From the NCBI GenBank assembly GCA_000934665.2, contig JYFJ02000982.1, positions 62,001 through 97,604 of the forward strand: DNA of 35,604 bases. The letters are read 5' to 3'. Below the pieces are notes generated by a model, which was given only the letters and a program-made list of their open reading frames with translations, had not been told where the DNA came from and did no database searches. A program made the position numbers and the translations under genes. The DNA is from Catajapyx aquilonaris. Lineage: Eukaryota. Positions within the stretch are counted from its first letter, which is position 1. Each line of letters opens with the position of its first letter. Of this stretch, positions 6,804 to 35,604 are shown piece by piece.

Positions 6804-6812
6804 TCAGTCGAC
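6804..6812 (+). promoter_or_regulatory. Putative arthropod initiator (TCAGT) of GST-5; equivalents upstream of GST-6 (8388), GST-8 (10939) and GST-9 (12931)
   Basis: TCAGTCGA/CCAGTCGA recurs about 60-80 nt upstream of the ATG (further upstream in GST-9, which has a probable 5'UTR intron) and matches the TCAKTY Inr consensus. Confidence 0.55.
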
Positions 6813-6862
6813 GTCTAGCACACGTTCTGGCCAGGTGTATCTGACAGACTGAAATTGCAACA

Positions 6863-8002: not shown

Positions 8003-8200
8003 TAAAACTGTAATAACTCATTACAAATATGACCGTCATTTCTAATGGTTCATATTTCGTGCAATTTCCCGCACCTGATGGTAGCTCATTGTGATCATAA
8101 TTAGAGGTGTATGGAATTTATAGTAACATCCCGACCAAGACGTAAACAGAATGAGTAATGAGTAATGAATGTACTGTACAGCGTCACAGGTTCTAGGCAT

Positions 8201-8211
8201 ATGACCGTGCA
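8201..8211 (+). promoter_or_regulatory. Possible antioxidant response element (CncC/Maf) upstream of GST-6
   Basis: ATGACCGTGCA fits RTGACnnnGC about 250 nt before the ATG; short motif that could arise by chance. Confidence 0.3.
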
Positions 8212-8453
8212 GCTATAGTTTACACTCGGTTTAAGGGCAAATAACTGCTCGTGTAAATAGACTTGTTATAGCTTACATCTGGCTGGCACATGTTTACGTA
8301 ACCGGTATTTGATCCGGCACCAACTCAAGGCCAAACTTTGTTATATCATCTTTCAAAAAAAGCACAGCACTATAGAGAGCGCTAGCCTCAGTCGACGTGT
8401 ACTTCTCGTTGTCTCTATACACATATCCTGGTGCTGTCCAAAGTGTTAGAATA

Positions 8454-9374
8454 ATGCCCATCGACATGTACTACATGATTGGTAGCCCGTATTGCGGGGC
8501 TGCCACGCTAACAGCCAAGGCCCTTGGGATAGAGTTCAACATGAAGAGGCTGGACTGGGATAGCATGGATCATCACAAGCCAGAGTTTCTCAAGGTATGC
8601 ACATGGGCCCAGAAAAGATTGGTACAGTACAAACTGACAACGATCGATAAGCCGATTATTTAGCAATTTAGCAATTCAGTAATTAAAATGTTTTTCTAAG
8701 ACTGTTGAACTCTCTTACAGATCAACCCTAGGCACTCTGTACCAACCATTGTTGACGAAGGATATGCCCTGACTGAAAGGTATGGGGACGAGATTCTCCA
8801 ATAATATTTTAAATGACAACTATTTCCGACCTGACTTCTAGTCGCGCCATTATGGTTTACCTGGTGACCAAGTACGGCAAGGACGATTCGTTGTATCCAA
8901 ACGATGCCAAGAAGCGCGGATTGGTCGAGCAAAGACTTAATTACGGCATTGGCACATTGGAGAAGCGATTGTACGACGTCTATGTAAGTAATACTAATTG
9001 CTGACAACACAACCAACATTCCTGATTGTACTGTCAATGAAATATTACTAACCTGACAGGCACCTGCTTTTGAGGGAAGCGACGCAATCAACAAGGCTAA
9101 GATCCCTCAAATGAAAGAAGCCCTGGAGATACTGGACGGCTACTTGTCCCAGTCCAAGTGGTCAGCAGGTGACCACATAACCATCGCTGACCACAGCCTG
9201 GTCGGAAGCATCAGCATCTACGACGTCTTCGGAGTCGACTTTTCCTCCTACAAGAATGTGACCAATTGGTACAAGCAGTGCCAGAAGGAGATGCCTGGTT
9301 ACAAGGAGGCCCACGGAGACGGAGTGGAGGTGTACCGACAATGGGCTCAGCCTCTTTTGGCAGGCAAAGTGTAA
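8454..9374 (+). CDS. Delta/Epsilon-class GST-6 (218 aa)
   Basis: Exons 8454-8594, 8721-8779, 8842-8983, 9060-9374. GSPYC motif. Confidence 0.95.
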
Positions 9375-9924
9375 AGATTCTGGCCTAATAAACAAAGGAT
9401 TAAACACGGGTATTCAGTACAAGCCAAGCCTTTAAATACAAGTAGTATAATATTAGTATCCACCAATTATTATACCAATTTCCAATAACGATTTTATTCT
9501 GACTATAAGAAGATATTAACGTGGCGTCATATAGTCCAAATAATTTTTTTAATGCCAGGTGGTGACATTGATTCAAAAGATCTATTCACAAAAGGTGGTT
9601 TCACAAGAAAAATGTTATTTTCGCTCCTGACAGGGCTTCTTCATTACTAATGAATATTTTTACGCCCTCTGAGAAGTAACTGACATACAGTGGATAGTGT
9701 CAGTTGAATAAATCTGTAGAAGCAGATTTACTAATAGGGCTGTGCTTTGTACCCTACTTGACCTCTGACGTATTAAGTACACTTGCTATCTGCCATATCT
9801 CCACACCGAAAAATGTAGACTTTGAAATCATCAAGTGAACTACACAGTCTTGAGTCGAATCGAGTGCAGCGAGCTGACCTCAAAACTCAAATCCTATTCA
9901 ATTCAAATCCAGCAACAAGTGACA

Positions 9925-10785
9925 ATGAGCATTGACTTCTACTGCATGTACGGCAGCCCGCCTTGCGCATCGGTCATGCTGACGGCCAAGGCTTTGGGAA
10001 TCGACCTCATCAAGAAGATGATGGACTACAAGGCCGGAGATTTGGATACACCTGAATTTCGAAAGGTACAAACACACCTTCCCAAAATATAAATATGTTA
10101 TACTCATCATGGTGTTATGACAGCTAAATCCGCAACGGATGCTGCCTACCATCCAAGACGATGGGTACGTACTGGCAGAAAGGTGCGTACATTTATAATT
10201 ATGTAATCTACTTTTTTGATCCATATCCATCCTTAGGCGTAATTTAATATTTTGATTCCAGTCGTGCAATCATGGTGTACCTGGTGACTAAGTACGGCAA
10301 GGATGACACTCTGTACCCCAACGATGCCAAGAAGCGGGGATTGGTGGAGCAGAGACTCAACTTTGACCTGGGAACACTCTACAAGCGCCTCTGGGACGTT
10401 TATGTAGGTATTATACCGGATGAAGCAAAAGTCAGATACTGATTTAATTATGTGATATTCTTGGATAAAGCTTCCGGCCTTTCGAGGAGGCAAACCAATC
10501 AACAAGGACAACCTCAGTACGCTGAAGGAAGCTCTGGAGATACTGGACGGCTACCTGTCCCAGACCAAGTGGTCAGCAGGTGACCACGTAACAGTGGCTG
10601 ACCACGCCTTGGTGGCCAGCATAGGTGCCTTCGACGCCCTCGGCTTTGACCTGACCCCATACAAGAACGTGACCCGTTGGTACAAGGACTGCCAGAAGGA
10701 GATGCCAGGATACAAAGAGACCAACCAGGAAACTGTTGACACCCTAGGAAAATATGCCAAAGGTGTGTTGGCTGGAAAGGTGTAA
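9925..10785 (+). CDS. Delta/Epsilon-class GST-7 (218 aa)
   Basis: Exons 9925-10065, 10124-10182, 10262-10403, 10471-10785. GSPPC motif; intron 3 needs an AAG acceptor. Confidence 0.93.
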
Positions 10786-11016
10786 AAATACTAGAATAAA
10801 AGCTACACCTATATCACTCATTCAAGTGCATTTTTCTGCCTCATCATCGCGCAATCTTATCATACATGAGTATATGCAACACTGTACTTTGTTATGTCAT
10901 ATGGAAAGGCAACCTTCAAGTGTGGAGGATTGCAAGCCCCAGTCGATTCTGAACGCTTCATTGAACAGGATCGTCTCTTCTAAATTTTAATAAGCATCAC
11001 CAGGCCACTTGCAACA

Positions 11017-11958
11017 ATGACCATCGACTATTATTACATGATACACAGCCCTCCTTGCGCATCAGTACTTCTGACGGCCAAGGCCCTTGGAGTTGACCTC
11101 AACAAAAAGGTGCTGGCCAGCGGAGATCAGCTGAAGCCTGAATACGTCAAGGTAAGGATAGTCTGTATTTGAGAGACCCTGTTTGAAGTATTACACGAAT
11201 ATTTGAATGACGATGCTTTGGACCTTGTTGGACTAATGTCATGCATATACACAATATATTTTTACGTAACTCCTTTCAGATCAACCCACAACACGCAGTG
11301 CCAGCCATTGTGGACGACGGATATGCTCTGGCAGAAAGGTATAGCAGTTACATTTATTTTTCCTCATTAGCAACAGCTGTAGTGAGTTTTAGCCTTTATA
11401 GTAACTCGTAAAACATGTACGAATCTTGCATGTTTCAGCCGTGCAATCCTGGTGTATCTGGCAACCAAGTACGGCAAGGATGACACCCTGTACCCAAAGG
11501 ACGCCAGGAAACGTGGACTGGTAGAGCACAGACTCAACTTCGACATAGGAACACTGTACCAGCGATTCGTGCAGGTTTATGTGAGTATTTCCATCAAACT
11601 ACAGAGTGTCACAAACCGACTTCTCAACCTTGCTTATTAACAGATGCCTGCATTTCGAGGAGGCGATTCAATCGACGAGGAGAAGCTTCCCAAGCTGAAG
11701 GAAGCCTTCGAGATACTCGACGGATACCTGTCCAAGACCAAGTGGGTAGCAGGTGACCACATAACAGTCGCTGACCACAGTCTGGTGGCCAGCGTCGGAT
11801 CCATGGACGCAGTGAACTATGACCTGTCACCCTTCAAGAACGTAACCCGCTGGTACAAGGACTGTCAGAAGGAGATGCCAGGCTACAAGGAGACCAACCA
11901 GGTCATGATCGTCACTCTGCGAGAGTGGGTCAAAGAGAAGTTCCCTAAAATGCTCTGA
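11017..11958 (+). CDS. Delta/Epsilon-class GST-8 (216 aa)
   Basis: Exons 11017-11151, 11280-11338, 11439-11580, 11644-11958. HSPPC motif; 2-aa deletion in exon 1 shared with GST-9. Confidence 0.95.
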
Positions 11959-12721
11959 ACCCCGGTCCAAAAGAATGATGCTCCCTGATGCTTACTCAAG
12001 TTGAATAAAAATTGGGCAATATTCGTGTTGTTGAATTTTTGTTGAAATCTGTACATATCTATAAATTAGGGTACTTGTGAGTTTGTTTGTTTGTCCCTTA
12101 TAGAAATCCAGGGGAAGCCCCTACACCGCCTTAATAAACTGCCAATTACGCTAATTGGCCACCTCACGTGAGTTCGTATCGTATGGTCATTCCGGGATTT
12201 TGTGGGATTTGAAATTAGACTTCCAGACACAAATAAAATATACAAAAAAAACACTATTTACAAAAATTAGTCAGTGTTGAAAGCAAAATTTCCCACCAGG
12301 CATCTGTGCGTACATTTCTAAAGTTATTCAGGGGAACGAGGTGGAGGTGTGAGGTGGGGTCAAGGAGTCAAAAATTCTGGATAAAGACACATGGCTGCCC
12401 AGTCTTTTCCTGGGCCAACTACATCCGCATTCCTATTTTTTACACGTCCAATCAGCATATCTGCGTCGACAAACCTTGGCTTATTGTAACTCTTATAAGG
12501 CCTGTTTTAAGGAATATCGCATTTCGAGTGTATGGAATGCAAATTTTACAAACAAACAAACTTCCTAACATATACGTACCCCTATATCTTTAACAGCATC
12601 CCCAGCATACCCGGGAAACACAGGGTAACCTGGTACTGTATAATAGTCCTTACAACAATATAATCAATGCTCATCATAATTATACCACATTCTAACATAA
12701 TATATTGGTGGAGACTCTTTT

Positions 12722-12799
12722 CACTTCTCGCAGGATTTATCACTAGCACAAGTGCACTTCTCGCAGGGTTTATCCCTTGCACAAGTGCACTTATCGCAA
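12722..12799. repeat. 33-bp tandem repeat, about 2.3 copies
   Basis: cacttctcgcaggatttatcactagcacaagtg / cacttctcgcagggtttatcccttgcacaagtg / cacttatcgca. Confidence 0.85.
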
Positions 12800-13126
12800 T
12801 CATGCAAACCTGCCTCCAGCCTGCCTCATCATTGAGTCATTACGTGCAGAGTATAAATTTGCCAACACTGCATGCACCTGCTGTTATGTCACATTAGGAT
12901 GCAACCTTCAACCGTGCAGAATAACACACTTCAGTCGATTCAGGAATCGGTAGTGGCCGGATCGTCTCCCATATAAATTCAGGTACTGCGTATTCAATTA
13001 TTGTCACATTCCTTACTGTCAACTTAGCAGTAGGCTATTAGTTGCGGATATTTCACACCAGCAATTAGTGTAAAGACTCTGTACTCTGTACTCATCAGTG
13101 TCTAGCAGCCACTAACATCTGCAACA

Positions 13127-13954
13127 ATGACCATCGACTATTACTACATGGCACGAAGCCCTCCCAGTGCTGCAGTCCTTCTGACGGCCACGGCTATTGG
13201 TGTGAAGATTAATAAGATATTGCTTACCAGCGGAGATCAGCTGAAGCCAGAATACCTCAAGGTACTGTATTTATGACACTGACATACACCGTAGCTTTAT
13301 CTGCCTCATTGGTTTTCAGATCAACCCACAACACACCGTACCAACAATAGTGGACGATGGATACACCCTGGCTGAAAGGTATATCAGTATGTGCTTGTAT
13401 GTTCGTATTGTATAACAAAGGCGTCATGTTTCAGTCGTGCAATTCTGGTGTACCTAGCCACCAAGTATGGCAAAGACGACAGCCTGTACCCGAATGAGGC
13501 CAAGAAACGCGCTGTGGTCGAGCAGAGGCTGTACTTCGACATGGGAACGCTGTACGACCGATTTCTGCAGGTTTATGTGAGTACATTTTGTAATAAACTA
13601 CATGGTGTAACATCGACTCTCAACCGTGCTTTTTAACAGATGCCTGTATTTCGAGGCGGCGATTCAGTCGACAAGGAGAAGCTTCCAAAGCTGAAGGAAG
13701 CCCTGGAGATACTGGACGGATTCCTGTCCCAGTCCAAGTGGGCAGCAGGTGACCACGTAACCATCGCTGACCACAGTCTGGCCGCCAGTTTCGGCGCCTT
13801 GGAAGCTGTGAACTTCGACCTGACCCCTTATAAGAATGTGACCCGCTGGTTCAAGCAGTGCAAGGACCAGATTTCTGGCTACAAGGACACCATTCAAGTC
13901 ATGGTCGACAACCTGAAACAGTTGGTCACAGAGAAGCTTTCTAAGATGGGCTGA
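13127..13954 (+). CDS. Delta/Epsilon-class GST-9 (216 aa), recent duplicate of GST-8
   Basis: Exons 13127-13261, 13320-13378, 13435-13576, 13640-13954. RSPPS motif; upstream ~12820-12980 resembles ~10838-10990. Confidence 0.95.
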
Positions 13955-15986
13955 CTCATTATGCTGAACCCTCTGGATTAATAAAAATTGCAATTTAAAT
14001 ACCGAACTTCGTAACTAATGCACAATTCCTCACTAGCCCTGAAGGCACCTAAAATCATTAACTAGATTTATTTCTTTATTAAACTTTTCAGCAAATCAAT
14101 CTATTTAGTCGAGTAAATTAAAATTACGATGTTTTACCTCTTAAGTGTTAGTTTTTTCCCCGGATTCTAACGATTTATCCATCATCAAGCAGTTATTGAA
14201 TCAAGGCGGTAAAGTTGAAAGATGATCAGCCTAATGGCCGTAAGATTATTATCTTGAGTTATCAATATTTTTTCTTACTGATAACTATACATACGTCGTC
14301 GTCCTTTTTTCATTATTAAATTATTATCGGATTGATGATTGTCACTGTGAAGCGGCTCATGTCAGTGCAAATGTTTTCAAAAGATAAATCCGTGACATTT
14401 GAAGAGTTCGTGAGTTCAGTCAAGACCGTTGAAGAAATTAGCAGGTTGAAAAATTTAGTCATAATTATATCAAATATCAGCCAAATAAATCCGTGTCTAA
14501 CAAATGCATTTGTTGAAATATTGAACAATTATTTTGTTTCTTATTCAACGCAACGCATGATCGTTTATTATTATGTCATTTCCACCTGTGCCGCATCACA
14601 TAACAGTAATAAAAGTATGAGAAGCTCCGTCTTCGGATACTATCACGAACCAGGATGCGGCCTTCACAATTCACATGCATTTGTAAAGCTATCGTAAAAT
14701 TATGCAACAAATTTTCTCCTCACATCTACCACCTTTTCAACTCGCAATAATTCATTCAGTCAGTGTGAACTCGACAGGTACCGCCTATTACTATTGTATA
14801 AGCCTTGATAAGTACAGAATCGTGTGAAGTCAAGTGGAAAAAAAGTTAGTACAGTAACAGAATACGATTTTTCAAGGTTTTTGTGACGTCACGTTACTAA
14901 GCAAGATACAACTAACAATAGCCCAAAAAATGTAATCACTTGTAACTTTTTAAGAAATAAAGGTTTGCCATACCGTATACATTTGTTGTCCAAAGAAATT
15001 ACACTATAATGCTATGCGTGAGTTGAATGAAAATTAGCCAATAAAAGCATGGGGACAGAAAGTCACGTGGCGTCCTGAAGGCTGTGGGAATGATGACAGC
15101 GACTAGATCGAACGTCGCCTATAACCTTTTCTACCCCAACAAGTCGCTAGATCTGACTTTGAAACACTCTCCGAAATATCATCAAGTTGGCAAGAAACGC
15201 TACAGACTCTTAGCCTCTCACATTGCATATCATAGACAAGTAAGTACACTTAGTCATTACATTCACTTCTGCAGGTTCTAACACTTGTTACAATAATTGC
15301 AACTGTCGGCATGTATAGCATTGTTTACATCTGTTTGGCCAGTGGTAAATTAATTTTGAGATGGGTATTTATTTAAATACCTTAATGCAGACATAGTCAC
15401 ATTTTGGTCAAACTTCACTTAAGCGTAATTAAATGTAAATTGTCACTGAGCTTTGAATAATGTATTTATTAAATAAATCTCACCACATAATGTCCTTTTA
15501 ACAAACAATCACGTCAGGAAAACAGCTGTGACTCTGATCGTTTTGAATTTCATGCCTGCGTATTTATAATACATGTATAGCACTTATCCCTACTGTCAGA
15601 CAGCGGGTAAATCGATGGACAGTACATGCATCCACAGGATCGATTGATATTTTTGTACCAATGTCCCTCTTCTTTACTGCTCAAGTTTACGACTGCGTAT
15701 GTGCACGCAATGTTAGGTGCGACTGGGTTTACGACAAGGCAGTAAATTCAGGAGAAAAAAAATATCGATAGTAACAAAACAGCAACTTAGTTTACTTTAC
15801 CTATTTGCTATTTACATATTTACTTTGCCTATAACTTAGGTACCTGTACTCTATACTTTTTAACTCATTGTAATTAGGTCTTTTTTTTAGAAGCGCCTTG
15901 TTCCACCTGGAAAGGCAGAACCACACCAGATGGGCTGTACCTTAACCAGTCCCGAATTTGTTCAAGGACCGGACTATTCACCGACA

Positions 15987-17028
15987 ATGCCTATCGACAT
16001 CTACTGTTTCATTGCCAGTCCGCCTTCTCGTTCAGTTATGCTGACGGCCAAGGCTGTCGGAGTCGAGCTCAACAGAAAAGTACTGGACATGATGACTGGG
16101 GAACATCTCAAGCCTGAGTACCTCCAGGTATAATATCGCCTTTGGAATTAAGCAGAATAATATTATTGTCCTAATGATTCAATTTTGCAGATCAATCCGC
16201 TTCACACTGTTCCGACTATAATAGATGACGGATTAATTCTGTCAGAAAGGTATGTACTGTACTGTATTGTGACATGCATGTGTAACTATGGCGCCTGTAT
16301 TTCCAGCCGTGCAATCCAGGTGTACTTGGCTACCAAGTACGGAAAGGACGACACTCTGTACCCAAACGACGCCAGGAAACGTGGATTGGTCCAGCAGCGA
16401 CTCTTATTCGACATGGGAACTCTGTACCAGAGACTTTGGGACGTTTATGTGCGTATACCGTCAATTGGGGTGAGATTGTGACAGGTGGGGTGAGATTGTG
16501 CCAGCGCATTTTTGGACAACAGTGCGCCATACTGGCAGCAAGCGAATTTAGGCTTGTTTTATTACATTGAGGAATGGTCAAGGTTGGTAATGACGGACGA
16601 GTAACTGTCACAATCTCACCCAACCTGGCACAATCTCACCCATCCTGGCACAATCTCACCCAAATTGACGGCATGTCACCCAAAAAAAAGTGAGAGTTTC
16701 CGATAAGACCTGTCTTTCGCAGAGGCCCGCGGTGTTTGCACAGAAACCAATCAACGAGGATAATCTTCCAAAATTGAAGGAAGCGCTGGACGTATTCGAC
16801 AGCTACCTGTCCCAGTCTAAGTGGGCGGCTGGTGACCAGGTGACCATCGCTGACCACAGTCTGGTCGCAAGCATCGGAACCTTCGATGCGGTCAGGTTCG
16901 ACCTGAGTCCATACGAGAACATAACCCGATGGTACAAACAGTGCCAGGAGGAACTTCCTGGATACCAGGAGACCATTCAAGAAGGGGTCAACTACTTCAA
17001 AGAATTCACCAAAGATCTTGAATTATAA
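15987..17028 (+). CDS. Delta/Epsilon-class GST-10 (215 aa)
   Basis: Exons 15987-16127, 16191-16249, 16307-16448, 16723-17028. ASPPSRSV, GEHLKPEYL, INPLHTVP motifs. Confidence 0.94.
16458..16671. mobile_element. 214-bp MITE in intron 3 of GST-10
   Basis: About 28-bp near-perfect TIRs ccgtcaattggggtgagattgtgacagg / cctggcacaatctcacccaaattgacgg. Subterminal repeats gggtgagattgtg occur twice on the left and as reverse complement three times on the right. TA flanks the left end. Confidence 0.88.
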
Positions 17029-17179
17029 TAATGCATGGTGGAACAGGTCTTTACGGCTAAAATTTTGAAGCAAAAAATTGCAAATTACAAAAAAAAGCAT
17101 TCAGTACTGTTTAATATATAATTAATTAATGAACCTCATGGGAGGCATGGATGGTAAATTAGATTTTTTGGGGGGGAAG

Positions 17180-17740
17180 TGATCCAAAGTTCTCAATTTC
17201 TGAAACATTGACCAAATTTACATGTCATAACGGAAATGGGATTCTGTGTTCTGGAACTACCAAAACAGTGTACAGAATGATGTAAGTGACATGTAAACTA
17301 ATTCACAAGTTAATGACCTGGGGCAAATTCACGTAATCATTTTATTGCGATGGTTATTACAAGTACTACACAGCAAAATTATATTCCCGAGTGTACATTT
17401 TGCACTATATTACTTTTTGTCCAGAATTCGATTAAATTATTTTAGTAGATCAAATTACTGAATAGTAATACTTGACACTGTGCAAATAAGCATTAAAAGA
17501 GTTATAGTTCTCCGGTGTTTTCCCGTCTTTTTGTTGCAGGGTAGTAATTCTATTGTTTCGGGTTTTTACGATATTGGAAAGAAATTATTTCCCCTTCTTT
17601 ATGATCATGCAAGCAAACCTTGCAACCTACAATAATAATTACAACTTTCATTCTGTGGCTTCATAATAATTACCATCGTGATAAAATTATTTTCAGGCCC
17701 TCAAATATTTTTACTATAATAATAACTGAACTTTGGATCA
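17180..17740. mobile_element. Possible decayed MITE (~560 bp)
   Basis: Perfect 13-bp inverted repeat tgatccaaagttc (17180-17192) / gaactttggatca (17728-17740) around AT-rich non-coding DNA; no clear TSD. Confidence 0.45.
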
Positions 17741-18108
17741 ACTAATATTAATGCACTACGCTTTAGACATATGAATAACTGTAAAAATAAACGAAATAAA
17801 CACACAGTTACAAAAACCTTGCCAGCTTCTGTGGTTATTACAATATTATGCAACTCGGTGCAGTGCAAGTGGGACGAATGGACGTTTTTTAAATTAAAAT
17901 TTATTGCCTATACAGTATACCTGCAGCGGACATAAAATTGTTATAGCTCGGTGCACCTGAAAACTGCATTTGGCCTCAGTGTCTGATCAGCACCGGCAAC
18001 GAAAAGTAGCGTTCCTTAAAGGTAAATCCTAACAAACATACTTTTGTTTAGTACTGCACATTATGGTGTATACTTCATTTTTATGTCAGGCTTCACATCT
18101 AGACAACT

Positions 18109-19025
18109 ATGCCTATCGAGTTTTACTACATGAAGGGCAGCGCGCCTTGCCGTGCAGTGATGCTGACCGCTAAGGCTCTCGGACTTGACCTCATCTTCAA
18201 GGAGGTCAGCGTGCTGGCCAGTGAGCAGCTCAATCCCGAATTCGTCAAGGTAACATAATCTTTGATTATCCAATTTTTTGGACTATAAGATTTGCTAACT
18301 TCTCGCGTGTTTCAGATCAATCCGCAGCATCTTATTCCTACCATAGTGGACGATGGTTATGTGCTTTGGGAAAGGCAAGTACTATGTCTCTCAAATCCAT
18401 GTTAACAAAATAATATTATAAGAATTTTTGTTGTTTTACAAAATTGGATTGGTAAACCATTTTTAATGCAATTAGAGCTTTCAGTAATTTATTAGTCTTC
18501 TCCAGCCGTGCCATTAACGTGTACCTAGTGACCAAGTACGGCAATGACGACTCCATGTGTCCGATAGAGGCCAAGAAGCAAGGATTGTTACATCAGCGAC
18601 TCAACTTTGATCTGGGCACATTGTACCAGCGATTTGACGATGCATATGTAAGTCCATATCCAAACTGCTTTTTACACCAAACCTTACTCTGAATAAAGTT
18701 TCCAGCCATTTTCTTCGGTGGCAAAGAGATCCATAAGGACAAAGTGACATGTGTCGACCAGTCCATGAGTCTGCTGGACCTGTTTCTGGCCCAGTCCAAG
18801 TGGTCAGCAGGTGACCACATAACCATCGCTGACCACAGTCTGGTTGCGACAGTGAGCACAATGGACGCCGTTGGGTATGACCTGACCCCTTACAAGAATG
18901 TGACCAACTGGTACAAGCAGTGCCAGAAGGAGATGCCAGGTTACAAGGAAGCTAACCAGGAAGGGGTCGACGATTTTAGAGAGTTGGCCAAACAAATGTT
19001 GGCTGGGAAGAAATATTCACACTAA
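18109..19025 (+). CDS. Delta-class GST-11 (222 aa), most canonical Delta N-terminus in the array
   Basis: Exons 18109-18249, 18316-18374, 18506-18647, 18699-19025. [38 protein letters not shown] donor on intron 2 and AAG acceptor on intron 3. Confidence 0.92.
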
Positions 19026-20553: not shown

Positions 20554-21548
20554 ATGGGGCCGTTGAAACTGTACCACTGCACGGACAGTCCTCCGAGTCT
20601 GGCGGTCAGGATGACCCTGAAGTACCTGGGCATCGAACCAGAGCTGATTGAGATCGACTTTGCCAATGGGGAGCACATTTCTGATGATTTCAAGCAGGTA
20701 ACAAGTTGTAAAATAAACATCTTTGCTCTCGATAAATTATGTGGGCCTATTCACACTACCAGCAATTAATTGTTGTTTCAGAAATATCCCCAAGGAGAAA
20801 TTCCTCTATTGGACGACGATGGATTTTATCTCGGAGAAAGGTACAGTGCCGGTATGTCACATTCTCATTACCCGCAGTATAAATGCAATGTTACGCATAT
20901 TGCAGCATCGCAATTCATCAGTACGTAGCTGACAAGTTTGCGATCGACGACAAACTGTACCCGAAAGATCTTCAACAGCGAGCCATCGTCAACCATCGTC
21001 TGGCCTTCAACTTGTCCACATATTACGCACCCATCTGGCACCACACTGTAAGTGCAAGTGCAGGTCATACAAGATAAGTGCATGTCATACAATGGAAAAT
21101 AATGGAAACGGATTTTCAGGTGATGCCCATATTTTACGCGTACCCGAAGACGGCCGAGGGAGACCGAAAGGTCACAAATGCCATCAAGGTCATGGACTTT
21201 GCATTGAAAATGTCTGGCACAAAATACGTCGCTGGAGGTACTAATTTGCGAATAATAATTAATGCCATGCAGATAAACAATCCGTAATTTTTTCCCCCCC
21301 CAGATCACTTGACCATCGCAGACAATGCTCTGATCACCTCCACCGGTGTCCTAGAGGCGGTCAGGATCGACCTGACCCCATACCCACATCTGACCCAATG
21401 GTACGAAGGCTTCAAGAAGAACCACCCTGACCTATGGGCCATCGAGGAGCCTGGAATGCTGGAAATGAGAAACTTCCACGACAATCCTCCTGATCTATCG
21501 CATCTCAAGCATCCCTTGCATCCCACCGACAAGAAAGCACTGGGTTAA
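20554..21548 (+). CDS. GSTu1: 'Unclassified' insect GST (GSTu1/Iota-type, 235 aa), GST-12
   Basis: Exons 20554-20697, 20782-20840, 20906-21047, 21120-21237, 21304-21548. Hallmarks PPSLAVRM, EIPLLDDDGFYLGES, RAIVNHRLAFNL and C-terminal NPPDLSHLKHPLHP match the insect GSTu1 family as I recall it. Confidence 0.9.
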
Positions 21549-21845: not shown

Positions 21846-22075
21846 CACAGAAGCAGGTTGGCATAGTGGATAAGGCGTCCGACTGCTAATCGGGAGGTCC
21901 TGGGTTCGAATCCCGGGGCCGGCAACCTTGCCCGTGGTTTTCTGTGGTTTTCCACGGTCTTTCTAGGATAATTCCGGGGTCGCTTCCGTATAATAGGCCA
22001 CAGCCGCTTCCTTCCTTCCCTATCCTTGGAGGTTGAATGGCAAATGCTGGGCCAACCTTCTTAAATATCAATTAA
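21846..22075 (+). mobile_element. Full-length tRNA-derived SINE with 12-bp TSD
   Basis: A box TGGCATAGTGG and B box GGTTCGAATCC; body ...taggccacagccgcttccttcc; flanked by direct repeat agtaggtaggcc (21834-21845 and 22076-22087); second copy at 30599-30778. Confidence 0.92.
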
Positions 22076-22444
22076 AGTAGGTAGGCCTATTCACAATAAA
22101 TAATGCGACAAAATCGGATAAATTTACCATCCTATTAATAATGATTAATCTGAGTTTCACTGATAATCCTATGATTACAAAATATAGTTAATAGTATGAC
22201 CAGTAGATGTCTCCACAACACCACTTTTCCAACATTAAAGCGCCTCAAAGCGGCGTACAACCAAACTAAGTACAGCAATTATTATTATTTGTGCATGTTG
22301 TACCACATGTCACGTAAAGGATAAAAATTACGTAGCATATCGCACTTTCCCTCATTGTTCTTCCATCACTGTACTTTGTAAGTATGTGTACTACCACACT
22401 TCACTTTGGTACTAGTACATTTTGTTCATTACATTCAGCCGCCT

Positions 22445-23657
22445 ATGTTGGCGACATTCATGAACCACATGTCCAGTAGGTGCTCCGGCAAGATGTTGAT
22501 GTACTACTATGACCAGTGTCCATTCTGCCGGTCGACAAGGCTGGTGGCCAGGGCACTGGGGATCTGCATGGAGGAGAAGCACGTGGACCTCTCTAAGGGA
22601 GAGAATCAGACACCGGAGTTTGGGAAGGTATTACCAAAAAATAATATAAAACAACGCACCATATGAAAAAGCAAAACTAGCTTGACATGAATTGCTAGCC
22701 GTACTTTTTAACCATGTTTGCATTGAACTGCTCAATTATTCCGAATGAAAGCCAATCCAGGAAATTAATTGTCAATTCCACTCTCCAGATCAATCCAACA
22801 CGCCAGGTTCCAACTCTCATCGATGGCGACCAGACATTGTGGGAGAGGTAATTAAGCAGTGTTTGCCAAAATATTGAATCATTCATGATATTCCAGAGAG
22901 AGAGAGAAGAAAAAAAAAAATCTGTTGGAAATTTGAATCGATAAAAATGCAAAGATTTAATAGGGTGTAATGAAGTGAGTAGATCAACCCGTGATTATTT
23001 TTTGCTGTTTGCCACTAATTAAAGTAATATTTTAACTTCATCCTTTTTAGTCGCCCATTGATGATGTACCTTGCGGAGAAGTATGGCCAGAAGGACGGTG
23101 GCACCTTTTACCCAACAGATCCTGTGAAGCGATTTCGTATCAACGAAAAGATTTTCTACGAGGCTGGGACTCTCACTAGACAATACATTCAGTGCTACGT
23201 ATGTATGACATGCTCACAAGGTGTAGTCAGGAGTTTGATTAATTTTCACCTCTAAGAGCTAGCTTCATAGATTCAATAGATTTCAAATTAACACCCTGTT
23301 TTGCAAAACATTTTACTGATTCCATTTTCATTTCAGATACCAGTTATAAAACAGGGAGCAGCAGTTGATCCACAGAAGAAGCAGCTGCTTCTGGATGCTC
23401 TGAAAAATGTGGATGACATACTTTCGAAGACTAAATGGATTGCTGGTGATAACATGACCGTTGCTGATTGTGCCTACATCGCGTTCATCACTACAATTGA
23501 GGCGGTCAAAGTGGACATGAGTCCATACCCAAACATCCGTCGCTGGATCTCTGATTGCAAGAGTACGATGCCTGGATACGAGGAGGTGAACGAGTATGGG
23601 ATCAAGCAGTTCAAGGAGAAATTGGTTAACAATATTCCAGCCCTCAACCAGCAGTAA
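22445..23657 (+). CDS. Divergent Delta/Epsilon-fold GST-13 with CPFC active site (236 aa if the first ATG is used)
   Basis: Exons 22445-22627, 22789-22847, 23051-23198, 23337-23657. YYYDQCPFCRSTRL, INPTRQVPTL, LWESRPL, WIAGDNMTVAD. Start codon uncertain (22445/22460/22469/22493). Confidence 0.92.
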
Positions 23658-24824
23658 CTTATTTATGTTTGGCAGCTAATGAGCAGCTTATTATTTGATG
23701 TGAAGAGCACAGTGTCCTTATGTGTGGCTGCTACTTACATGCACTTACGAGAAGATAAATATATTGATAATGGTATACACTGTGTTTTGCATGTTACTGA
23801 TGGAATTTAGGTTCAATATCTGTTATAATAAAGAGCTCTATGCCCACAGGTTCTAGGTGTGCAAAGTAGTACTGATTGTCATAACCAATAAGATAATTAT
23901 TATTATTTACTATTCTCATCACCATCATTAGAATGTGACATGACATCACAATAGGTCTATTACACATTGTCACGTCACTCAGCCATATCACGAGGATAGA
24001 CAGCAACGCTGTACGTACTATACTTGTCAATAATTGTTTCTCAGAATTACAGAGTTGCGAAAGCCGGAACTTATATCTGCACTAGTTGAAACAAAATAGG
24101 CTCGTCTCTTTTATCAAGCCAGTTTGGTTATTGTTTATGTAAAGTTGGTAAAACTGAAATTACAGTTTACTGCTTTACTGTACAATATTATTATTAAATA
24201 TCCATAATTCATGCATTTAAAACTAGCCATGCTCTACTATAGCATATATCAAGGTATGCAAATATGATTAAGAAAAGCCCTAAATGACCTCTAGACAGTA
24301 AAAGAGGAAGTTGTCTGTTTGCTCCAAGGCCATCCAACATTCGCAATTCCTGCATATTCATATAGGTAAGTAGTTATACATAAGTGACAATAAAAGAATT
24401 TAATGGCGCCACCCAAGGTCAACCAAGTTTTGCACTACACTATACCTCTCTCCCTGAGTTATCTCAATATTTATTATCACAACTTCACAAGATCATGGAA
24501 ATCTGTCTAGTCATAAGATCATGTTTTGACGTGTGGCATAATTTGTAGGCTATCATTGATCGACGAACACATGTCAAAGAATTTGAAAAAGTACAGTACA
24601 TGACATAAAAATCTTCAACACATTCCAACTAATAAATCACGTTAAATATTTCCACTTAACCACTTAACCTTAACCTTCGTGAGGTATTTAAAAAAAACAC
24701 ACACCATCACATCATAGCTTATCTGTCAGTTACCCCCTCATATTTGCTCGTTGCCAAGCTTCGCCTCGACCTTTAGATTGTCGCGGAATGAGCACCGTTT
24801 CGCCGTCTATACGACACCTTGGAA

Positions 24825-25704
24825 ATGCAGGGCACACTTGTCCTGTATTATGCAGACCTTTGCCCTAACTCCTGGACCGTACGACTCGCATCCAGGGAGC
24901 TGGGTTTGACCATGGAGGAGAAGCTCATCGACGAATCAAACACTGCCGAATTTGAACAGGTCCACAACCCAATTCATTATTAAATACTGCATACTAGGAA
25001 AAATAATTGCTAATTGTAATTTGTATTTACAGGTCAGTCCGAAACGTCGGATTCCAACACTTATGGACGGAACACTATCCTTATGGGACAGGTATGTTAT
25101 TTTCTTTAAGAAAAATTGACTCTCCAGCTACTGTCACTTTGCCTCATGAATAAACCGAGTGGTCAATTTGTCAGCCGTCCTTTAGTGATGTACCTGGCCG
25201 ACAAGTACGGAGATGGAGGGACCCTGTACCCGAAGGACCCTCTCAAGCGATTCGCCGTCAATAAAATGATGCTTTACGACGAAGTAAACCTGGCCAATCG
25301 ATTCGCCCAGTGCTACGTACGTCATAATAAAAATGTGACCATTTCCCAATCACCACATGTACGCAACTAGTAAAAAGATACATGTAAAAAAGCTTCCAGT
25401 TATCCAGCAAGGAGCATCGGTGGACATCCAGAAACAGACGCTGCTTAGAGAATCGCTCAGTTACTTGGACCACATTTTGGCAGAGTCCAGATGGATCGCT
25501 GGACACGACCTGACCATAGCTGACCACTGCTGCGTGTCCATAGTGGCTGCCTGCAAGGCCTGCAAATTCTGCACGTGCGACACTCCGAATCTCAAGAGAT
25601 GGATGGCCGACTGTCAGAGGACCATGGTTGGACACAAAGAGGTTCTGGGACGTGGGATCAAAGTGCTGGAGAAGTTACTGGAGAACATTCCAGCTCTCCA
25701 GTAA
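24825..25704 (+). CDS. Divergent GST-14 with CPNS active site and Cys-rich C-domain (215 aa); paralog of GST-13
   Basis: Exons 24825-24959, 25033-25091, 25175-25316, 25393-25704. LYYADLCPNSWTVRL, VSPKRRIPTL, LWDSRPL, WIAGHDLTIAD. Weak GTCCAC donor on intron 1 and AAG acceptor on intron 3. Confidence 0.85.
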
Positions 25705-25908
25705 CGAACGTCTTGTGTAATACTAATAAAGTCAATGGTGACAAAAATATTAATATCTATACCGTAATCTAAACGTCGCGACAGACAACAAATAAGAGAT
25801 TGGCTTCAATGAGGCAACAGCGTTGCTCAGTAACTCTGTCAACACTGGATGATGCCCGATAAACACGCCCGCTGACCTCTCAGAGTAACGGGATAAAAGA
25901 GCGAAATC

Positions 25909-26956
25909 ATGGATAACAAGGCATCGTCCGAGTTATATTCCAACCCGATACCGAAGCCTCAGAAGGCGATCCCGATGCAGCTCTACCACTATCGGTTCTG
26001 TCCGTTCTGCCGGTCAGTACGGCTGACCATCAAGACTTTGGGCCTGGAGGTCACAGAGGTCGAGATTGACCTCAGGAAAGGAGAGCAGCTCACCGCTGAA
26101 TTCATGCAGGTAAGTGCAAGTTTTACATCTGAGTTTGACATGTGACGCGATCATGTGAACAGCAAGAGTGCCTATACTAATAGTGTTGCAAAAATTTTGG
26201 CAGTTGAATCCACGACATACGGTCCCTGTGCTAATCGACGATGACCTGGTCATGACCGAGAGGTAATGTACCTATGTCACACTTGAACAAATTTTAGTCA
26301 TCATATTAATGCAAAATTTCGCAATAATTCCAGTCGTGCCATAATGATGTATTTGGCCGACAAGTACGACAAAAAAGGTGTGATCTACCCGAAAGATCCA
26401 AAGGCCCGAGCATGGGTCAACGAGAGGATGTTCTTCGACATGGCGACACTCTCGTCTCGTTACGTCAATTGCTACGTAAGTCTTTATAGTGAAATGAAAT
26501 GTCTTCAACTATACACTAATTTGGCAAAACAGGTTCCAGTTCTGCGACACGGCGACCCATTGGATCCGGCCAAGAAGAAGCTGGTCCACGACGCACTGGA
26601 CATAATCGACGGATACCTAACTCAGACAAAGTACATCGCTGGACAATCGATGACTATAGCAGACCACGCTTTTGTGGCCGTCATATCAACTCTGGCGGTA
26701 ACATACACGCTTTTTTTTATAGATATTACGAGCCAAAAAAATTTGAAACACGTGTGATAACTGGTATGTATCTCTCCAGGCCGTGAGGCTGCACATGGAC
26801 CCGTACAAGCGCATAAATTGGTGGTACAACAGGTGCCAGAGTGTCCTTCCAGGGTACCAGGAGATCGTACAGGACAACCTGGACGCCTTCGTGGAGGAAT
26901 TTGTCAGCAAGTGCCCCTACCTGCAGCCGGTCACTGACGGCTGCGTGTACGAGTAA
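25909..26956 (+). CDS. Divergent Delta/Epsilon-fold GST-15 with CPFC active site (247 aa)
   Basis: Exons 25909-26109, 26204-26262, 26334-26475, 26533-26697, 26780-26956. LYHYRFCPFCRSVRL, GEQL, LNPRHTVP, ESRAI; AATAAA follows the stop. Confidence 0.92.
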
Positions 26957-30598: not shown

Positions 30599-30778
30599 GG
30601 ATAGGGACGGAAGGAAGCGGCTGTGGCCTATTATTTTAGGAAACAACCCGGAATTTATCTGGAGGGACCGTGGGAAACCACAGAAAACCACGGTTAGTGT
30701 TTCCGGCCCCGGGGATCGAACCCAGGACCTCCCGATTAGCAGTCGGATGCCATATCCTCTCCTCCACTACTGCTCCGG
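30599..30778 (-). mobile_element. Second copy of the tRNA-derived SINE (3'-truncated)
   Basis: Reverse complement reads ...tccgactgctaatcgggaggtcctgggttcgatccccggggccgg...ccgtggttttctgtggtttcccacggtc...taataggccacagccgcttccttcc, matching 21850-22025. Confidence 0.92.
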
Positions 30779-30847
30779 TAGTAAATACCAATATTTGATA
30801 ATAAAAAAATAATATTTGATAATTAAGTAGGCCTACTACGGTACTTA

Positions 30848-31579
30848 ATAATTTAAAATAATAAACAATAATAAACAAATAATAATAAACAATAAATAAA
30901 TAATAATAAACAATAAATAAATAATAATAAACAATAAATAAATAATAATAAACAATAATAAACAAATAATAATAAACAATAAATAAATAATAATAAACAA
31001 TAAATAAATAATAATAAACAATAATAATAATAATAAACAATAAATAAATAATAATAAACAATAAATAAATAATAATAAACAATAATAATAATAATAAACA
31101 AAAATAATAATAAACAATAAATAAATAATAATAAACAATAATAATAATAATAAATAATAATAATAAACAATAAATAAATAATAATAGACAATAATAATAA
31201 ATAATAATAATAAACAATAAATAAATAATAATAAATAATAATAATAAACAATAAATAATAATAATAAACAATAAATAAATAATAAGCAATAAATAAATAA
31301 TAATAAACAATAAATAAATAATAATAAACAATAATAATAAATAATAATAAACAATAATAATAATAAATAATACTAAACCAGAATATGTAATAAACAATAA
31401 ACAATAAATAAATAAATAATACTAAACCAGAATATGTAATAAACAATAAGCAATAAATAAATAAATAAATAAATAAATAATACTAAACCAGAATATGTAA
31501 TAAACAATAAGCAATAAATAAATAAATAAATAAATAAATAATACTAAACCAGAATATGTAATAAACAATAAATAATAAC
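30848..31579. repeat. Compound AAT/AAAT/AAAC satellite ending in four copies of a longer unit containing aatactaaaccagaatatgtaataaacaataa
   Basis: Directly visible; it produces the spurious Ile/Tyr/Leu/Phe-rich minus-strand ORFs. Confidence 0.95.

Positions 31580-31651
<72 letters not shown>
31580..31651. repeat. (AGT)n microsatellite, about 24 units
   Basis: Pure gtagtagtag run. Confidence 0.97.
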
Positions 31652-31652
<1 letters not shown>

Positions 31653-32808
31653 ATACTGGCTTTTGCATGTGAGTCCGGTTCGGATTTTCCCCAAGTTTCT
31701 CTATACCGTATAGACGTATATACAGTGTTTGCTCCACTGCAAGACCTCTTGAGAGTATAGCCTACTTGTGATATTATGCAATTGCGACCATATACTTCTG
31801 CATTATATTATACAGACCGATTATGTAAGACCCTGCCCTTGATTTAAAGCCTGCCGCATCAAGCATGGTTGCCAACTGGTTCTTCCAGCCCCCATCATTC
31901 GCACACAACATGACTCTTGGCCGCATTGACAACATCCACTCCGGAGCAAACATCCGGATTTAACAAGCCGCATCAGGTAGATCCACCTGCATCATTCTCA
32001 TCAGTCGATAGTGCAGGTTGTATCGGTTCAGTATACCCCAGCCCACATCTAGACCATAGGGGTGGAGGCTCTCGTCCCCCTCCGAAGGGGGGGGAAAAAA
32101 ATGATGAAAAGAAAATGACAATGAAAATCCCGGAAATGCAGGAAATTCGTGCCCAGAAACAAGGCTACCACCTTGAAATAGCTGGATATTGATGTGCCCC
32201 CTTTTTTTTGTAGGAGTGTTAGACCGGGGCTGGAGATGGGTGGTTGGGAGTAGATATCCCCCGCGGGAGAAATAAAGGTAGTAGCGTAGGTAGGTTATAG
32301 TGGCCCCTCCTACACCCGGAAGTGGAATGGGCCCAAGAGAGGGGTGCAGTAGGGCGAGGGTGAGGGTGGAGGGGGGTAGATAGAATGTGTCCAGAGCCCG
32401 AAACGTCCTAGGGCAAGTGCGGGAGGTCCCGCCAGCACACAACCGAGCCCAGGATTGGATCGAACGGGCACGCCTGCGCAAGGCTAGGAGAGAAGCAGAG
32501 GCATCGAAAAGGGGGGCAAACCCAAAACCCTCACCCAAAAACCTAGAGCCCCCCTCTTTCCCCCACTTCGGATATATCCTCCCGCATGCTTACTTCTCCA
32601 AAACTACGCGGACAGTACACCTCGCGAAAAAATCGCCCCATGAAGTGCGGCACTTAGTGCTTCACTTCTCAAAGTTTTTTTTTTCTTTCGTTCCCCCTCC
32701 ACCGGACCTAAACCTTTTTGACCCCCACCTCGTGTCTGTTTGGTGCGTTATGCGGACGATCTGATTTCGAGTTCAGAAGTTTCCGAGTCCGTGGTTCGCC
32801 AGAGAGCC

Positions 32809-33688
32809 ATGGCTCCTGACCTCCTAGGGGACACCTGGGGGAGTTTCTTCGTCAACCGACACCAGCATCCCGAGAGTAGCCTCAAGTCCGAGTCGCTGCG
32901 TCTTCCGGACTCGGACGTACCGGGTATCGGCATCCTGCTGGGAAAGGAGCCGTCCGGATCGGTACCGCACCACCACCAGCTGACACCGTCCTCGTCCTCG
33001 CAGGCGTCGGCAGCAGCGGCGTCTCCGGCGTCGTCTCCAACCTCCTCCAGGTCGGAGCACGACCTCAACTACCTGCCACCGGTCACACTCAACATGAACC
33101 TGGTGTATCCGGCTCGGAAGCCAGTGCTGCTCCTGCCCGGAACTCCGTTGTCCGGAGAGCCTCGTCCGCAGGCTAACATCACCAAGTCGCTGCTAAACAC
33201 CGTCAACAATTCGGTGCTGTCTCTTCTGGGAGGAAGCACCGGAAGCAACGACCACGTCCATCTGTCGCCGTCGCACGACCGACACGTGTCGTCGTCCATC
33301 TCGCTCGAGTTCCTGGCCAACCGGACATCCAACGACAGCTCAGGTGCCAGCCTCTTGGAGATCGTGTCCGGAGGCGTCGCGGGCGTCGTCAGCAGCAACT
33401 CCGATCCGGCGTCGGTGGCCTCTTCCGAACCGGATGACCACACCTTCAGTGCCATCCCGCCAGAACTATTCTACAGGCACTCGTTCGCGATGACCATGGT
33501 CTACTGCGTCGCATACCTCCTGGTCTTCGTGGTCGGCCTGGTCGGCAACTGCTTCGTGGTCGCTGTCGTCTGGAGGGTCCCCCGGATGAGGACCGTCACC
33601 AACTACTTCATCGTCAACCTGGCCGTCGCAGACATCCTCGTCATCGTCTTCTGCCTCCCAGCAACCCTCATGTCCAACATCTTCGTCC
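32809..33688 (+). CDS. SIFaR: SIFamide receptor (class A neuropeptide GPCR), first coding exon: long N-terminus plus TM1-TM2; the remainder lies outside the window
   Basis: gccATGg Kozak context at 32809. [72 protein letters not shown] matches insect SIFaR as I recall it (GN in TM1, NLAxAD in TM2). Donor GTGAGT at 33689. Confidence 0.9.
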
Positions 33689-35604
33689 GTGAGTATTCAA
33701 ATTTCCCGCCCTATTGTGCTCTGAAGCAGTGCTGCCAACAGAACGGCCAGACGCGTCCCGGACGCGCTCCGGACTTAAATGTTGGCATCCCTGCCTTTAT
33801 TTGCGCTGGCTCAACCGAATTGAAATCAACTTACATTTTAAAAATAATCAGCAAGTACAGTGTGTACCAAAATTTCTGTACTGGACATGTTTCTGGATAA
33901 ATTATTTTGAATTGAAAATACGAGTTGTTCCGTTGTGTCCATTCTTTTCCTATTGGTTCAGATGGCTGGGGGTCAACCGCAGGTAAGTTCGGCCAGCACG
34001 TGCGGTCTGCAGTAAACAAATCGATGTCCAATCAATAGTCAGCGCCTAAACATCCGGTTTCCCCCCACTTTCGCCCGTGTATAGATGTATAGAAAGTGAT
34101 GCAAAGCTAAAGAGAGGGGAAACCCGGAAGTGCAGTGGAGCGGCCCAATAAAGCGGGGGCGCTCCCACCCACCCACAGCTCGATTCAGTGAACCCCTCCA
34201 ACAAACCTCCCGCTCGCAAAATCGCAACATTAGAGTTTACACACACAAAAAATTGTGGTTTTGAGGAAATAGCATTACTTTTTCAATATTTTGTATCCGG
34301 TACTAGAGAATCGGTCGTGCTGGTGTCCAGGTGGGCCAAACAGGTCCTAAAATCGGATCAGCATGCGAGAAACCCCTGAACTTTTTGTAGGGCATAACAT
34401 CTAGGATCAATCGGATGTAATATACTGCACAAATTTAAGGTTAATCTCTAAATGAGATATAAACAAATTTTTAAACAAAAAAATAGTGCGAATCCGCGAT
34501 ATGATAAGCTGAGGAGAAAAACACGTTAACCTCCACATTTGTCAATTTTGAGTTCCAACCAACATTAGCAAATGAACTACTTTTGCAATAATAATCTTGT
34601 CCGTCTTTTGAACAAAGCAAAAAAAGGGCTGCTCAGAAGCAGTGCGCCAACATTTTGAAGAAAAACATGTTAACCGCCAGCAACATGATCACATGTGCCA
34701 CGGCGTTTGTTTTCCGACAAAAACTCGCAACAAGAAAATATGTAAAAAAAATACTAATAAATAAAATTTAGCAAAAAATATCAACAAATAAATTAGCATG
34801 GAATATCAATGAATAAATAAAATTGGCAATGCACTGTTACTTATATGGCCATTGAAATTGAAATGTTGTTACAATTAAACCCAGTAAATAAAATCGGGCT
34901 GGATTTGCGCTTGTTAATAATAATTGGCAGAAACTAACCGTTAATAACGAGAGTAATTCGACCAGATTTTGTTGTACCGAGTTAATTCATGGCAAACCTT
35001 TGGTAGATCCCAAGGAAATTCCGAGTGAATCTATATAGTCCCTTGGTTAATTCGTGGTGATATGAGTTAAGCCAGGTGGGAATCTGAAACATTTAGGGGA
35101 ACAAATTCTAGGAGAATCCGGAGTAAATCCCAAGGAATGTACGTTCAGGTAAATTAAGATACAAATTGAGATTTGCTATAGGTTAAAATGTCTGGTGAAA
35201 TCGATCGTCCCAGGCAAATTTTTAGGATGATCCAATGTATCATCAGTTGAGTTTAAGGGGAGATAATTCGACTCGAAAAAATTTAAATTAAGTAGGTTAC
35301 ATGATTAACAACATACGCAAGAAATGTGCTCCTTTTTGAAGCCAAGTCAAGCCACATTTCCCTCGTTATTAATTGGCCACTCTACCCAAAACGAATGGCC
35401 CAAACTTTTGCACACAAAACTTTGCAATATTTTTCTGCATTTCCTCCCTCTAGGCATTTCCTCTTTTTCTTTTCTTTCTTTTAAAAATTCGGAGGCATAA
35501 ATATAAGATGTGGTTCGTCCCACATTTCCTTCGGCTTAATCGGGTTGTGCGGAACTTCCGGGGATGCTCCAGGAGTTTCTCCTGTAGGTTGGAAGGGAGG
35601 GAGG

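Follow-up and report, generated by a model that had tools for sequence, protein, structure and literature searches.

Three adjacent glutathione S-transferase (GST) genes in a 35,604 nt stretch of the Catajapyx aquilonaris genome (assembly GCA_000934665.2, contig JYFJ02000982.1, positions 62,001–97,604 of the forward strand; hereafter the window) carry cysteine where Delta-class enzymes have their catalytic serine. These genes, GST13, GST14 and GST15 (the trio), are Delta by descent, but their active site is not that of a Ser-GST. They represent a natural reversal of the catalytic residue inside a Ser class, one that is recurrent and convergent on the motif of the Cys-GSTs, and not a new kind of system. 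By analogy with an engineered plant enzyme, we consider a Cys-GST mechanism to be fairly probable for GST13 and GST15, in which enzyme and glutathione (GSH) form a mixed disulfide and thiol transfer or deglutathionylation is performed.

Fourteen complete GST genes were modelled in the window: ten paralogs, one divergent gene (G11) and the trio. The ten paralogs (G01–G10) form a tandem array on the + strand between 1363 and 19025, and are Delta-like genes, nine of them Ser-type and the tenth, G03, carrying Cys. GST13 (+ strand) has four coding exons (22445–22627, 22789–22847, 23051–23198 and 23337–23657) and encodes 236 aa, with the motif CPFC at residues 25–28 (22517–22528, codons TGT CCA TTC TGC). 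GST14 (+ strand), also of four exons (24825–24959, 25033–25091, 25175–25316 and 25393–25704), encodes 215 aa and has the monothiol form CPNS at residues 13–16 (24861–24872, codons TGC CCT AAC TCC). GST15 (+ strand) has five exons (25909–26109, 26204–26262, 26334–26475, 26533–26697 and 26780–26956) encoding 247 aa, and again CPFC, at residues 31–34 (25999–26010, codons TGT CCG TTC TGC). Compared with other Delta GSTs, GST13 and GST15 are extended at the N-terminus, by 16 residues in GST13 and by a Pro-rich sequence of 22 residues in GST15. All introns of the trio are GT..AG, the reading frames are intact with one terminal stop per gene, and a polyadenylation signal (AATAAA at 23827, 25725 and 26989, respectively, all + strand) lies 21–170 nt past each stop. 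An initial annotation, made from the sequence alone, had placed the three Cys motifs at exactly these positions and had reported Ser motifs in neighbouring paralogs, which were found as GSPPC in G01 and G06 and as GSAPC in G10.

Both domains of a cytosolic GST, GST_N-type and GST_C, were seen in the trio by Pfam searches with single exons. GST_C (cut-off 20.7) scored 36.5 bits on exon 4 of GST13, 28.6 on exon 4 of GST14 and 26.0 on the C-terminal exon of GST15. At the N-terminus, GST_N_3 scored 30.6 bits on exon 1 of GST15 (cut-off 22), and the GST_N-type scores for exon 1 of GST13 and GST14 were 17.2 and 20.8 bits, below the cut-off with these short pieces as queries. The best named matches of the window GSTs are Delta GSTs of thrips, leafhoppers and crustaceans, at 40–58% identity.

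When the proteins were aligned with MAFFT, each trio motif had its first Cys in the same column as the Ser of the nine aligned Ser-type array genes, and G11 has Ser at the corresponding motif position. Across the 228 rows of the alignment (13 from the window and 215 from databases) this column is Ser in 149 and Cys in eight, the latter comprising four window genes and four database proteins. HMMER aligned the sequences 'YRFCPFCRSV' of GST15 and 'YDQCPFCRST' of GST13 on 'LHLSPPCRAV' of Anopheles GSTE2, with Cys opposite the Ser of SPPC, which we take to be the catalytic Ser of that enzyme. The alignment of Cys with the catalytic Ser, which the initial annotation had set as a check on its proposal, is therefore seen both in the MAFFT column and against GSTE2. 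The defining feature of a Delta-class active site, a Ser at the N-terminus of helix alpha-1, is replaced by Cys in all three genes.

The codon in this column is AGC or AGT in all Ser-type GSTs of the window and TGT or TGC in the Cys genes, so that one A-to-T change converts Ser to Cys. Nor is the second Cys of CPFC new to these genes. Cys at +3 is present in seven of the ten local Ser paralogs and in 85 of the 149 Ser-type alignment rows; as it is already common in the SxxC forms of Ser enzymes, the change to CxxC needs one substitution. An aromatic residue at +2, giving CP[FY], is found in five of the eight Cys rows (CPFC in three, CPFS in one and CPYC in one), compared with 6/149 Ser rows, all SPYC, of which five come from one shrimp protein cluster. 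The trio is also rich in Cys overall, with 7 residues in GST13, 9 in GST14 and 6 in GST15, against 1–4 in the other 11 window GSTs. One further Cys common to the trio is that of a '(Q/N)CY' sequence at the ends of exon 3 (approximately 23193–23195, 25311–25313 and 26470–26472), where the Ser paralogs have 'DVY', 'DIY', 'DAY' or 'QVY'.

In its descent the trio is Delta-like, and it is not Omega. Exon 2 measures 59 nt in all 14 modelled genes, exon 3 has 142 nt in every one except GST13 (148 nt), and the intron phases are common to the trio and the array, in agreement with the Delta-type intron positions that had been recognised at the outset. Introns, strand and tandem location are shared with the Delta-like paralogs, and the array at 1363–19025 is the genomic context of the trio and its likely parental stock. 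Members of a GST class generally share more than about 40% identity. The array genes are 52–77% identical to each other, and the trio members 36–47%; between the trio and G01–G10, as between the trio and Delta-like proteins, identity is 29–44%, a range that straddles this threshold. The initial annotation had also stated that the motifs of Delta GSTs were retained. This was upheld for the LYP.DP-like and AG..T.AD sequences, which are present in all three proteins, and failed for GST14 at two others, where SP stands for NP and DS for ES.

Comparison with solved structures placed the C-terminal domains nearest to Delta. A profile of the C-terminal exons of the trio, searched against the PDB, matched Delta chains at E 1.5e-22 to 1e-18 and Epsilon chains at 5e-11 to 4e-6, and no Omega, DHAR, CLIC or Grx2 chain was among the best 60 of the 62 matches with E ≤ 0.01. 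Exon 1 of GST13 and of GST15 found Epsilon E2, slightly ahead, and Delta as top matches, at around 1e-5. In this the trio resembles the Delta and Epsilon enzymes (for example, Nilaparvata lugens Delta, 3wyw, and Anopheles GSTE2, 3zml), with which it shares the two-domain fold and its best matches in both domains. As in Delta GSTs, the cis-Pro turn, the Ser of ES and AG..T.AD are conserved; the differences from these classes are the Cys at the catalytic position, the two N-terminal extensions and the raised Cys content. Origin of the trio from Ser-GST stock, as first proposed, is borne out by the array introns, the tandem location, the strand and the Delta-best C-terminal profile.

An alternative is that the trio belongs to a known Cys class (Omega, or one like glutaredoxin-2, DHAR or CLIC) and is Delta-like in looks only, which we judge to be highly improbable. 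It draws on exon 1 of GST15, which human Omega-1 matches at E 2e-3 over a region including part of the N-terminal extension and 'RFCPF', and on which the Pfam Glutaredoxin model scores 24.2 bits (cut-off 22.9). The motif of Omega enzymes, Cys-Pro-Phe/Tyr-x, is indeed present as CPFC in GST13 and GST15, and CPNS of GST14 agrees with it only in Cys-Pro. On the same exon, however, Epsilon and Delta are ahead of Omega (for GST15, 5e-6 compared with 2e-3 for Omega; for GST13, 8.6e-6 compared with 0.58, and with 0.075 for E. coli Grx2), and the C-terminal profile is led by Delta at 1e-22, with no detectable Omega similarity among its best 60 of 62 matches, so that likeness to Omega does not extend across both domains. 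The introns are those of the Ser-type array, and the trio lies among Delta-like sequences in every tree. A grouping with Omega, which the initial annotation had named as a finding against its proposal, was accordingly not supported by the C-terminal profile, the exon 1 scores or the intron positions. The resemblance of the 'RFCPF' and Pro-rich extension of GST15 to Omega is thus due to convergence. Dithiol glutaredoxins are stand-alone proteins of about 100 aa, and the trio, although it includes CP[YF]C, consists of proteins of 215–247 aa with a GST_C domain.

For phylogenetic reconstruction, 176 candidate proteins (195–300 aa) were reduced to 80 at 55% identity, and to 64 with an NP..xP-type motif. 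Sequences with long branches or fragmentary N-termini (P0063, P0269, P0053, P0274, P0275, P0277, P0101, P0100, P0058 and P0004) were dropped before the 68-row trees, which contain no named Theta, Omega or Zeta references. As shared motif residues might by themselves draw Cys sequences together, a second alignment was made from which eight columns around the motif had been removed. With all columns, IQ-TREE paired GST13 and GST14 at 100/98 and joined GST15 to them at 100/94, and a pair of database proteins, P0052 and P0103, joined the trio at 95/94. Without the motif columns, the trio was again one clade, at 100/99, and P0052 and P0103 formed a pair at 90/92; the two groups were apart, on an unsupported backbone. 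In approximately unbiased (AU) tests on the motif-free alignment, a tree holding the trio together with P0052 and P0103 improved on the free search by 4.77 log-likelihood units (p 0.56), and one holding the trio with G01–G10 fell 15.3 units short of it (p 0.36). Neither constraint was rejected, so that an old, shared Cys lineage and a local offshoot of the array are both compatible with the data.

The initial annotation had described the switch to Cys for the trio. The change also occurs outside it, in a fourth window gene and in four proteins from the databases. The fourth gene, G03 (5735–6674, + strand), is otherwise an ordinary member of the Ser array, with the motif GCPFS (Cys codon TGC at 5765–5767) and Phe at +2. 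In the 68-row trees it groups with G02, G04 and G05, at 100/93 with and 100/91 without the motif columns, and its dN/dS against G02 and G05 is 0.13–0.14, which indicates constraint. Being nested inside Ser-type paralogs, G03 must have switched from Ser to Cys independently of the trio, and more recently.

The database proteins are P0052 (CPFC), from a metatranscriptome contig; P0103 (CPYC), an 'unnamed protein product' annotated from the ostracod Darwinula stevensoni; P0113 (CSSC); and P0180 (CTPC). All four are Delta-like GSTs which, like the trio, have Cys in the Ser column, and they are only 35–41% identical to it. P0113 and P0180 were placed away from the trio in every tree. Mapped on the motif-free tree, the Cys state takes five changes, at least four of them forced by the starred branches, and it is clear that Ser-to-Cys occurred more than once. 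Proteins of this kind stand unremarked in databases under generic names. In the ESM Atlas, P0052 was found to fall in generic arthropod 'GST 1-like' clusters only. A metagenome scan returned relatives in 145 of 370 stretches, and the best two of the 80 loci kept (L001 and L002) are both Ser-type; the remaining 78 have 21–44% identity in their best segment. Word-index protein searches with the last exon of GST13 and with exon 1 of GST15 gave no scoring match.

A broader scheme can be put forward tentatively, and we hold it to be possible rather than probable. In it, P0103 (CPYC) from the ostracod and P0052 (CPFC) from the metatranscriptome would be united with the trio in an old pancrustacean 'Cys-Delta' lineage, in which thiol-transferase chemistry like that of glutaredoxins and Omega GSTs re-evolved from a Ser-GST. 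With SxxC as the ancestral motif, Ser-to-Cys would then be a one-step toggle, thrown repeatedly (again in G03 of this array, and in P0113 and P0180), with a tendency on each occasion towards CP[F/Y]x.

Transcription, with splicing at the modelled sites, is seen for GST13 and GST15. Contigs of run X5, which is of unrecorded kind and comes from a second study on this organism, join every intron of GST13 (three) and of GST15 (four), all of them GT..AG, and none of these joints occur in the DNA run X1. The X5 contigs over both sets of CPFC codons show no differing letters, making sequence errors at CPFC unlikely. An upstream 5′ untranslated exon of GST13 ending near 22378 is indicated by a contig with a loose end at 22439 that matches approximately 22349–22378. 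Within the trio, X5 covers GST13 and GST15, and provides no evidence either way for GST14.

Between members of the trio, the proportion of nonsynonymous differences (pN) is 0.29–0.44 and that of synonymous differences (pS) 0.70–0.76, which is saturated. As saturation makes dN/dS ratios within the trio unreliable, only the observation that pN is well below pS was used. Among 26 columns conserved in at least 85% of 60 reference Delta-like proteins, GST15 keeps 24, GST14 19 and GST13 18, compared with 22–25 in the Ser paralogs, and the replacements in the trio are mostly conservative. The Pro of the 'VP' turn, the Ser of 'ES' and AG..T.AD are among the positions kept. The genes of the trio are probably functional and have been under long-term constraint. 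Lack of expression or a dN/dS near 1, named at the outset as grounds for abandoning the proposal, was not what was found: two of the three genes are expressed, and in each pairwise comparison pN falls well short of pS.

A second alternative is that one or more of the genes, GST14 foremost, is non-enzymatic or decaying, that is, a redox sensor, a binding protein or a young pseudogene. GST14 is the weakest member of the trio in several respects. Its terminal branch is the longest (1.28–1.29, compared with 0.40–0.49 for GST13), it has lost the +3 Cys as well as the ES and NP motifs, its C-terminal domain has six Cys within 17 residues (25528–25578, + strand), and its exon 1 found no solved structure below E 0.5. 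Set against decay are the three intact frames with canonical splice sites and AATAAA after each stop, the low pN relative to pS in every pair, the 19 of 26 conserved columns kept by GST14 itself, and the transcription and correct splicing of GST13 and GST15. We regard this alternative as improbable. A resemblance of GST14 'CPNSWTV' (24861–24881) to 'GPNGWKV' of fungal Ure2p was considered and rejected, the match (E 0.5–0.9) being at chance level.

In the Delta-class Ser-GST stock of the array, the AGY codon of the catalytic Ser would have changed to TGY, and this one substitution would have turned SxxC, where helix alpha-1 begins, into CxxC of the glutaredoxin type, as in GST13 and GST15; GST14 may later have kept the first Cys alone (CPNS). 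The thiolate of the first Cys is predicted to attack glutathionylated or disulfide substrates, giving a mixed disulfide between enzyme and glutathione, which would be resolved by a second GSH or, in the CPFC forms, possibly by the +3 Cys. The outcome would be the chemistry of a thiol transferase, a deglutathionylating enzyme or a reductase, like that of Omega, Lambda, dehydroascorbate reductase (DHAR) and glutaredoxin proteins, gained at the cost of GSH conjugation.

The chemistry and substrates of the trio are here inferred by analogy with the S13C mutant of the poplar Phi enzyme GSTF1. According to the available text of that report, S13C lost its activity with 1-chloro-2,4-dinitrobenzene (CDNB), its peroxidase activity and its other conjugation-type activities, was purified with bound glutathione (+305 Da), and gained thiol-transferase activity on hydroxyethyl disulfide (HED), with a kcat/Km of 1.1e3 M-1 s-1 (PMC4274894). 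The motif type CP[F/Y]x is that of known Cys classes: Table 2 of a review gives CPFA for Omega, CPFS for CLIC, CPF/YA for Lambda and CPFC/S for DHAR, and CPYC/CPFC as the glutaredoxin reference, and a Delta-type class is absent from that table (PMC4138524). Structural support is provided by P0052, which was predicted from a 60-row alignment to have the fold of a Delta GST (predicted local distance difference test, pLDDT, 94.4; predicted template modelling score, pTM, 0.91). In the model, Cys11 lies between the strand at residues 4–7 and the helix at 15–24, and superposition on the Delta GST 3wyw gives a template modelling (TM) score of 0.92 and a root mean square deviation of 1.8 Å.

Several points weigh against Cys-GST chemistry in the trio. 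The structural support comes from a proxy, P0052, that is 35–41% identical to the trio, and the precedent enzyme is a plant Phi GST. GST13 and GST14 have Arg for the His of the family motif 'NPQH'. GST14, besides lacking the +3 Cys and having DS and SP for ES and NP, has no solved relative of its exon 1 below E 0.5. Taken alone, the retention of one residue in three paralogs is, statistically, weak evidence. Bacterial Beta-class GSTs have an active-site Cys and still conjugate CDNB.

These Beta enzymes, and the G-site and core that the trio has mostly kept (18–24 of 26 conserved columns), favour a third alternative: that the trio has retained the conjugation or ligand binding of ordinary Delta GSTs. 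In that case Cys would simply take the place of Ser in donating a hydrogen bond to the GSH thiolate, or that role would fall to other residues, and the chemistry would be unchanged. The S13A mutant of poplar GSTF1 points the same way, in that its residual CDNB activity, as given in the same report, shows that other residues can help in activating GSH (PMC4274894). With S13C, on the other hand, the conjugation-type activities were abolished and glutathione was trapped on the Cys, as far as that text covers them (PMC4274894), and the fact that Cys goes together with an aromatic +2 residue across several lineages (5/8 against 6/149) suggests selection for a motif of Cys-GST type and not a neutral swap. 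We consider ordinary conjugation to be rather unlikely, and Cys-GST chemistry in GST13 and GST15 to be the better guide to their function. It may not extend to the reduction of dehydroascorbate (DHA), an activity that S13C lacked in the part of the work available (PMC4274894).

The closest parallels to the trio each differ from it in some respect. Omega GSTs (CPFA/CPFC) also have Cys-Pro-Phe at the start of helix alpha-1, and GST15 adds its Pro-rich extension and a weak similarity to GSTO1; the thiol-transferase and reductase chemistry that would be expected of the trio is that ascribed to Omega enzymes in the accessible part of the review (PMC4138524). Unlike Omega, the trio is Delta-like in gene structure, in tree position and in the C-terminal domain. 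GSTF1 S13C (PDB 4RI7) has the same change from catalytic Ser to Cys within a Ser-GST scaffold but, unlike the trio, is a laboratory mutant of a plant Phi enzyme with, from the available text, a weak new activity (PMC4274894). The change in the trio is natural and old, with synonymous sites saturated, and other changes, Phe at +2 among them, came with it. Dithiol glutaredoxins, Grx2 and plant DHAR share with the trio CP[FY]C on a thioredoxin-fold N-terminal domain. Classical glutaredoxins, unlike the trio, have no GST C-terminal domain, and Grx2 and DHAR were not among the C-terminal-profile matches listed.

No description of Delta-type GSTs with Cys at the catalytic position was found in the full-text literature, a search that lay mostly outside subscription journals and is not proof of absence. 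The word 'cysteine' is absent from the main text, as available, of a paper on the GSTs of 12 Drosophila species (PMC4195677), and a large survey of cytosolic GSTs, its supplements aside, describes no Delta-type Cys-GST in the text available (PMC3995644).

The usual teaching is that the catalytic residue of a GST is fixed per class, with the Cys classes ancient and Ser and Tyr derived, and the Delta and Epsilon GSTs have been studied almost solely as conjugating enzymes, in detoxification and insecticide resistance. If the trio does function as proposed, then the active-site chemistry of the Delta class would be evolutionarily reversible by one nucleotide step, and counts of 'Delta GST' genes in arthropods may include redox enzymes and not conjugating ones. 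The locus would also be a natural counterpart of S13C, with Ser, monothiol (CPNS, CPFS) and dithiol (CPFC) paralogs adjacent to one another for comparative enzymology.

The remaining features of the window lie on either side of the trio. At its left end, a GST gene is cut by the window start, leaving exons 3 and 4 (142–671, + strand), and between G02 and G03 lies a lone 31-residue fragment of a GST C-terminus (4217–4309, + strand), probably left over from a pseudogene. In G10, intron 2 begins with GC (18374–18376, + strand) and is of GC-AG type, all other modelled introns being GT-AG. The divergent gene G11 (20554–21548, + strand) has five exons encoding 235 aa and the Ser-type motif DSPPSLAV. 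It shares the 59 nt and 142 nt exons of the array, has an extra intron inside its AG|D motif, and groups at 100/99–100 with a 'GPPSLAV'-type protein, P0254, whose annotation names a beetle.

Between G11 and GST13, ARAGORN called a tRNA-Ser(GCT) at 21853–21924 (+ strand). Translations of open reading frames near 30600–30770 look similar to those of this stretch, which suggests a tRNA-derived repeat and not a true tRNA gene. A long, AT-rich, low-complexity repeat occupies 30636–31807 and gives runs of Y, L, I and F in several frames. Further to the right, a long open frame (32722–33900, + strand) ends in the start of a rhodopsin-family seven-transmembrane domain (Pfam 7tm_1, 48.8 bits on 33400–33720), and is probably the first coding exon of a G protein-coupled receptor gene downstream of the GST cluster.

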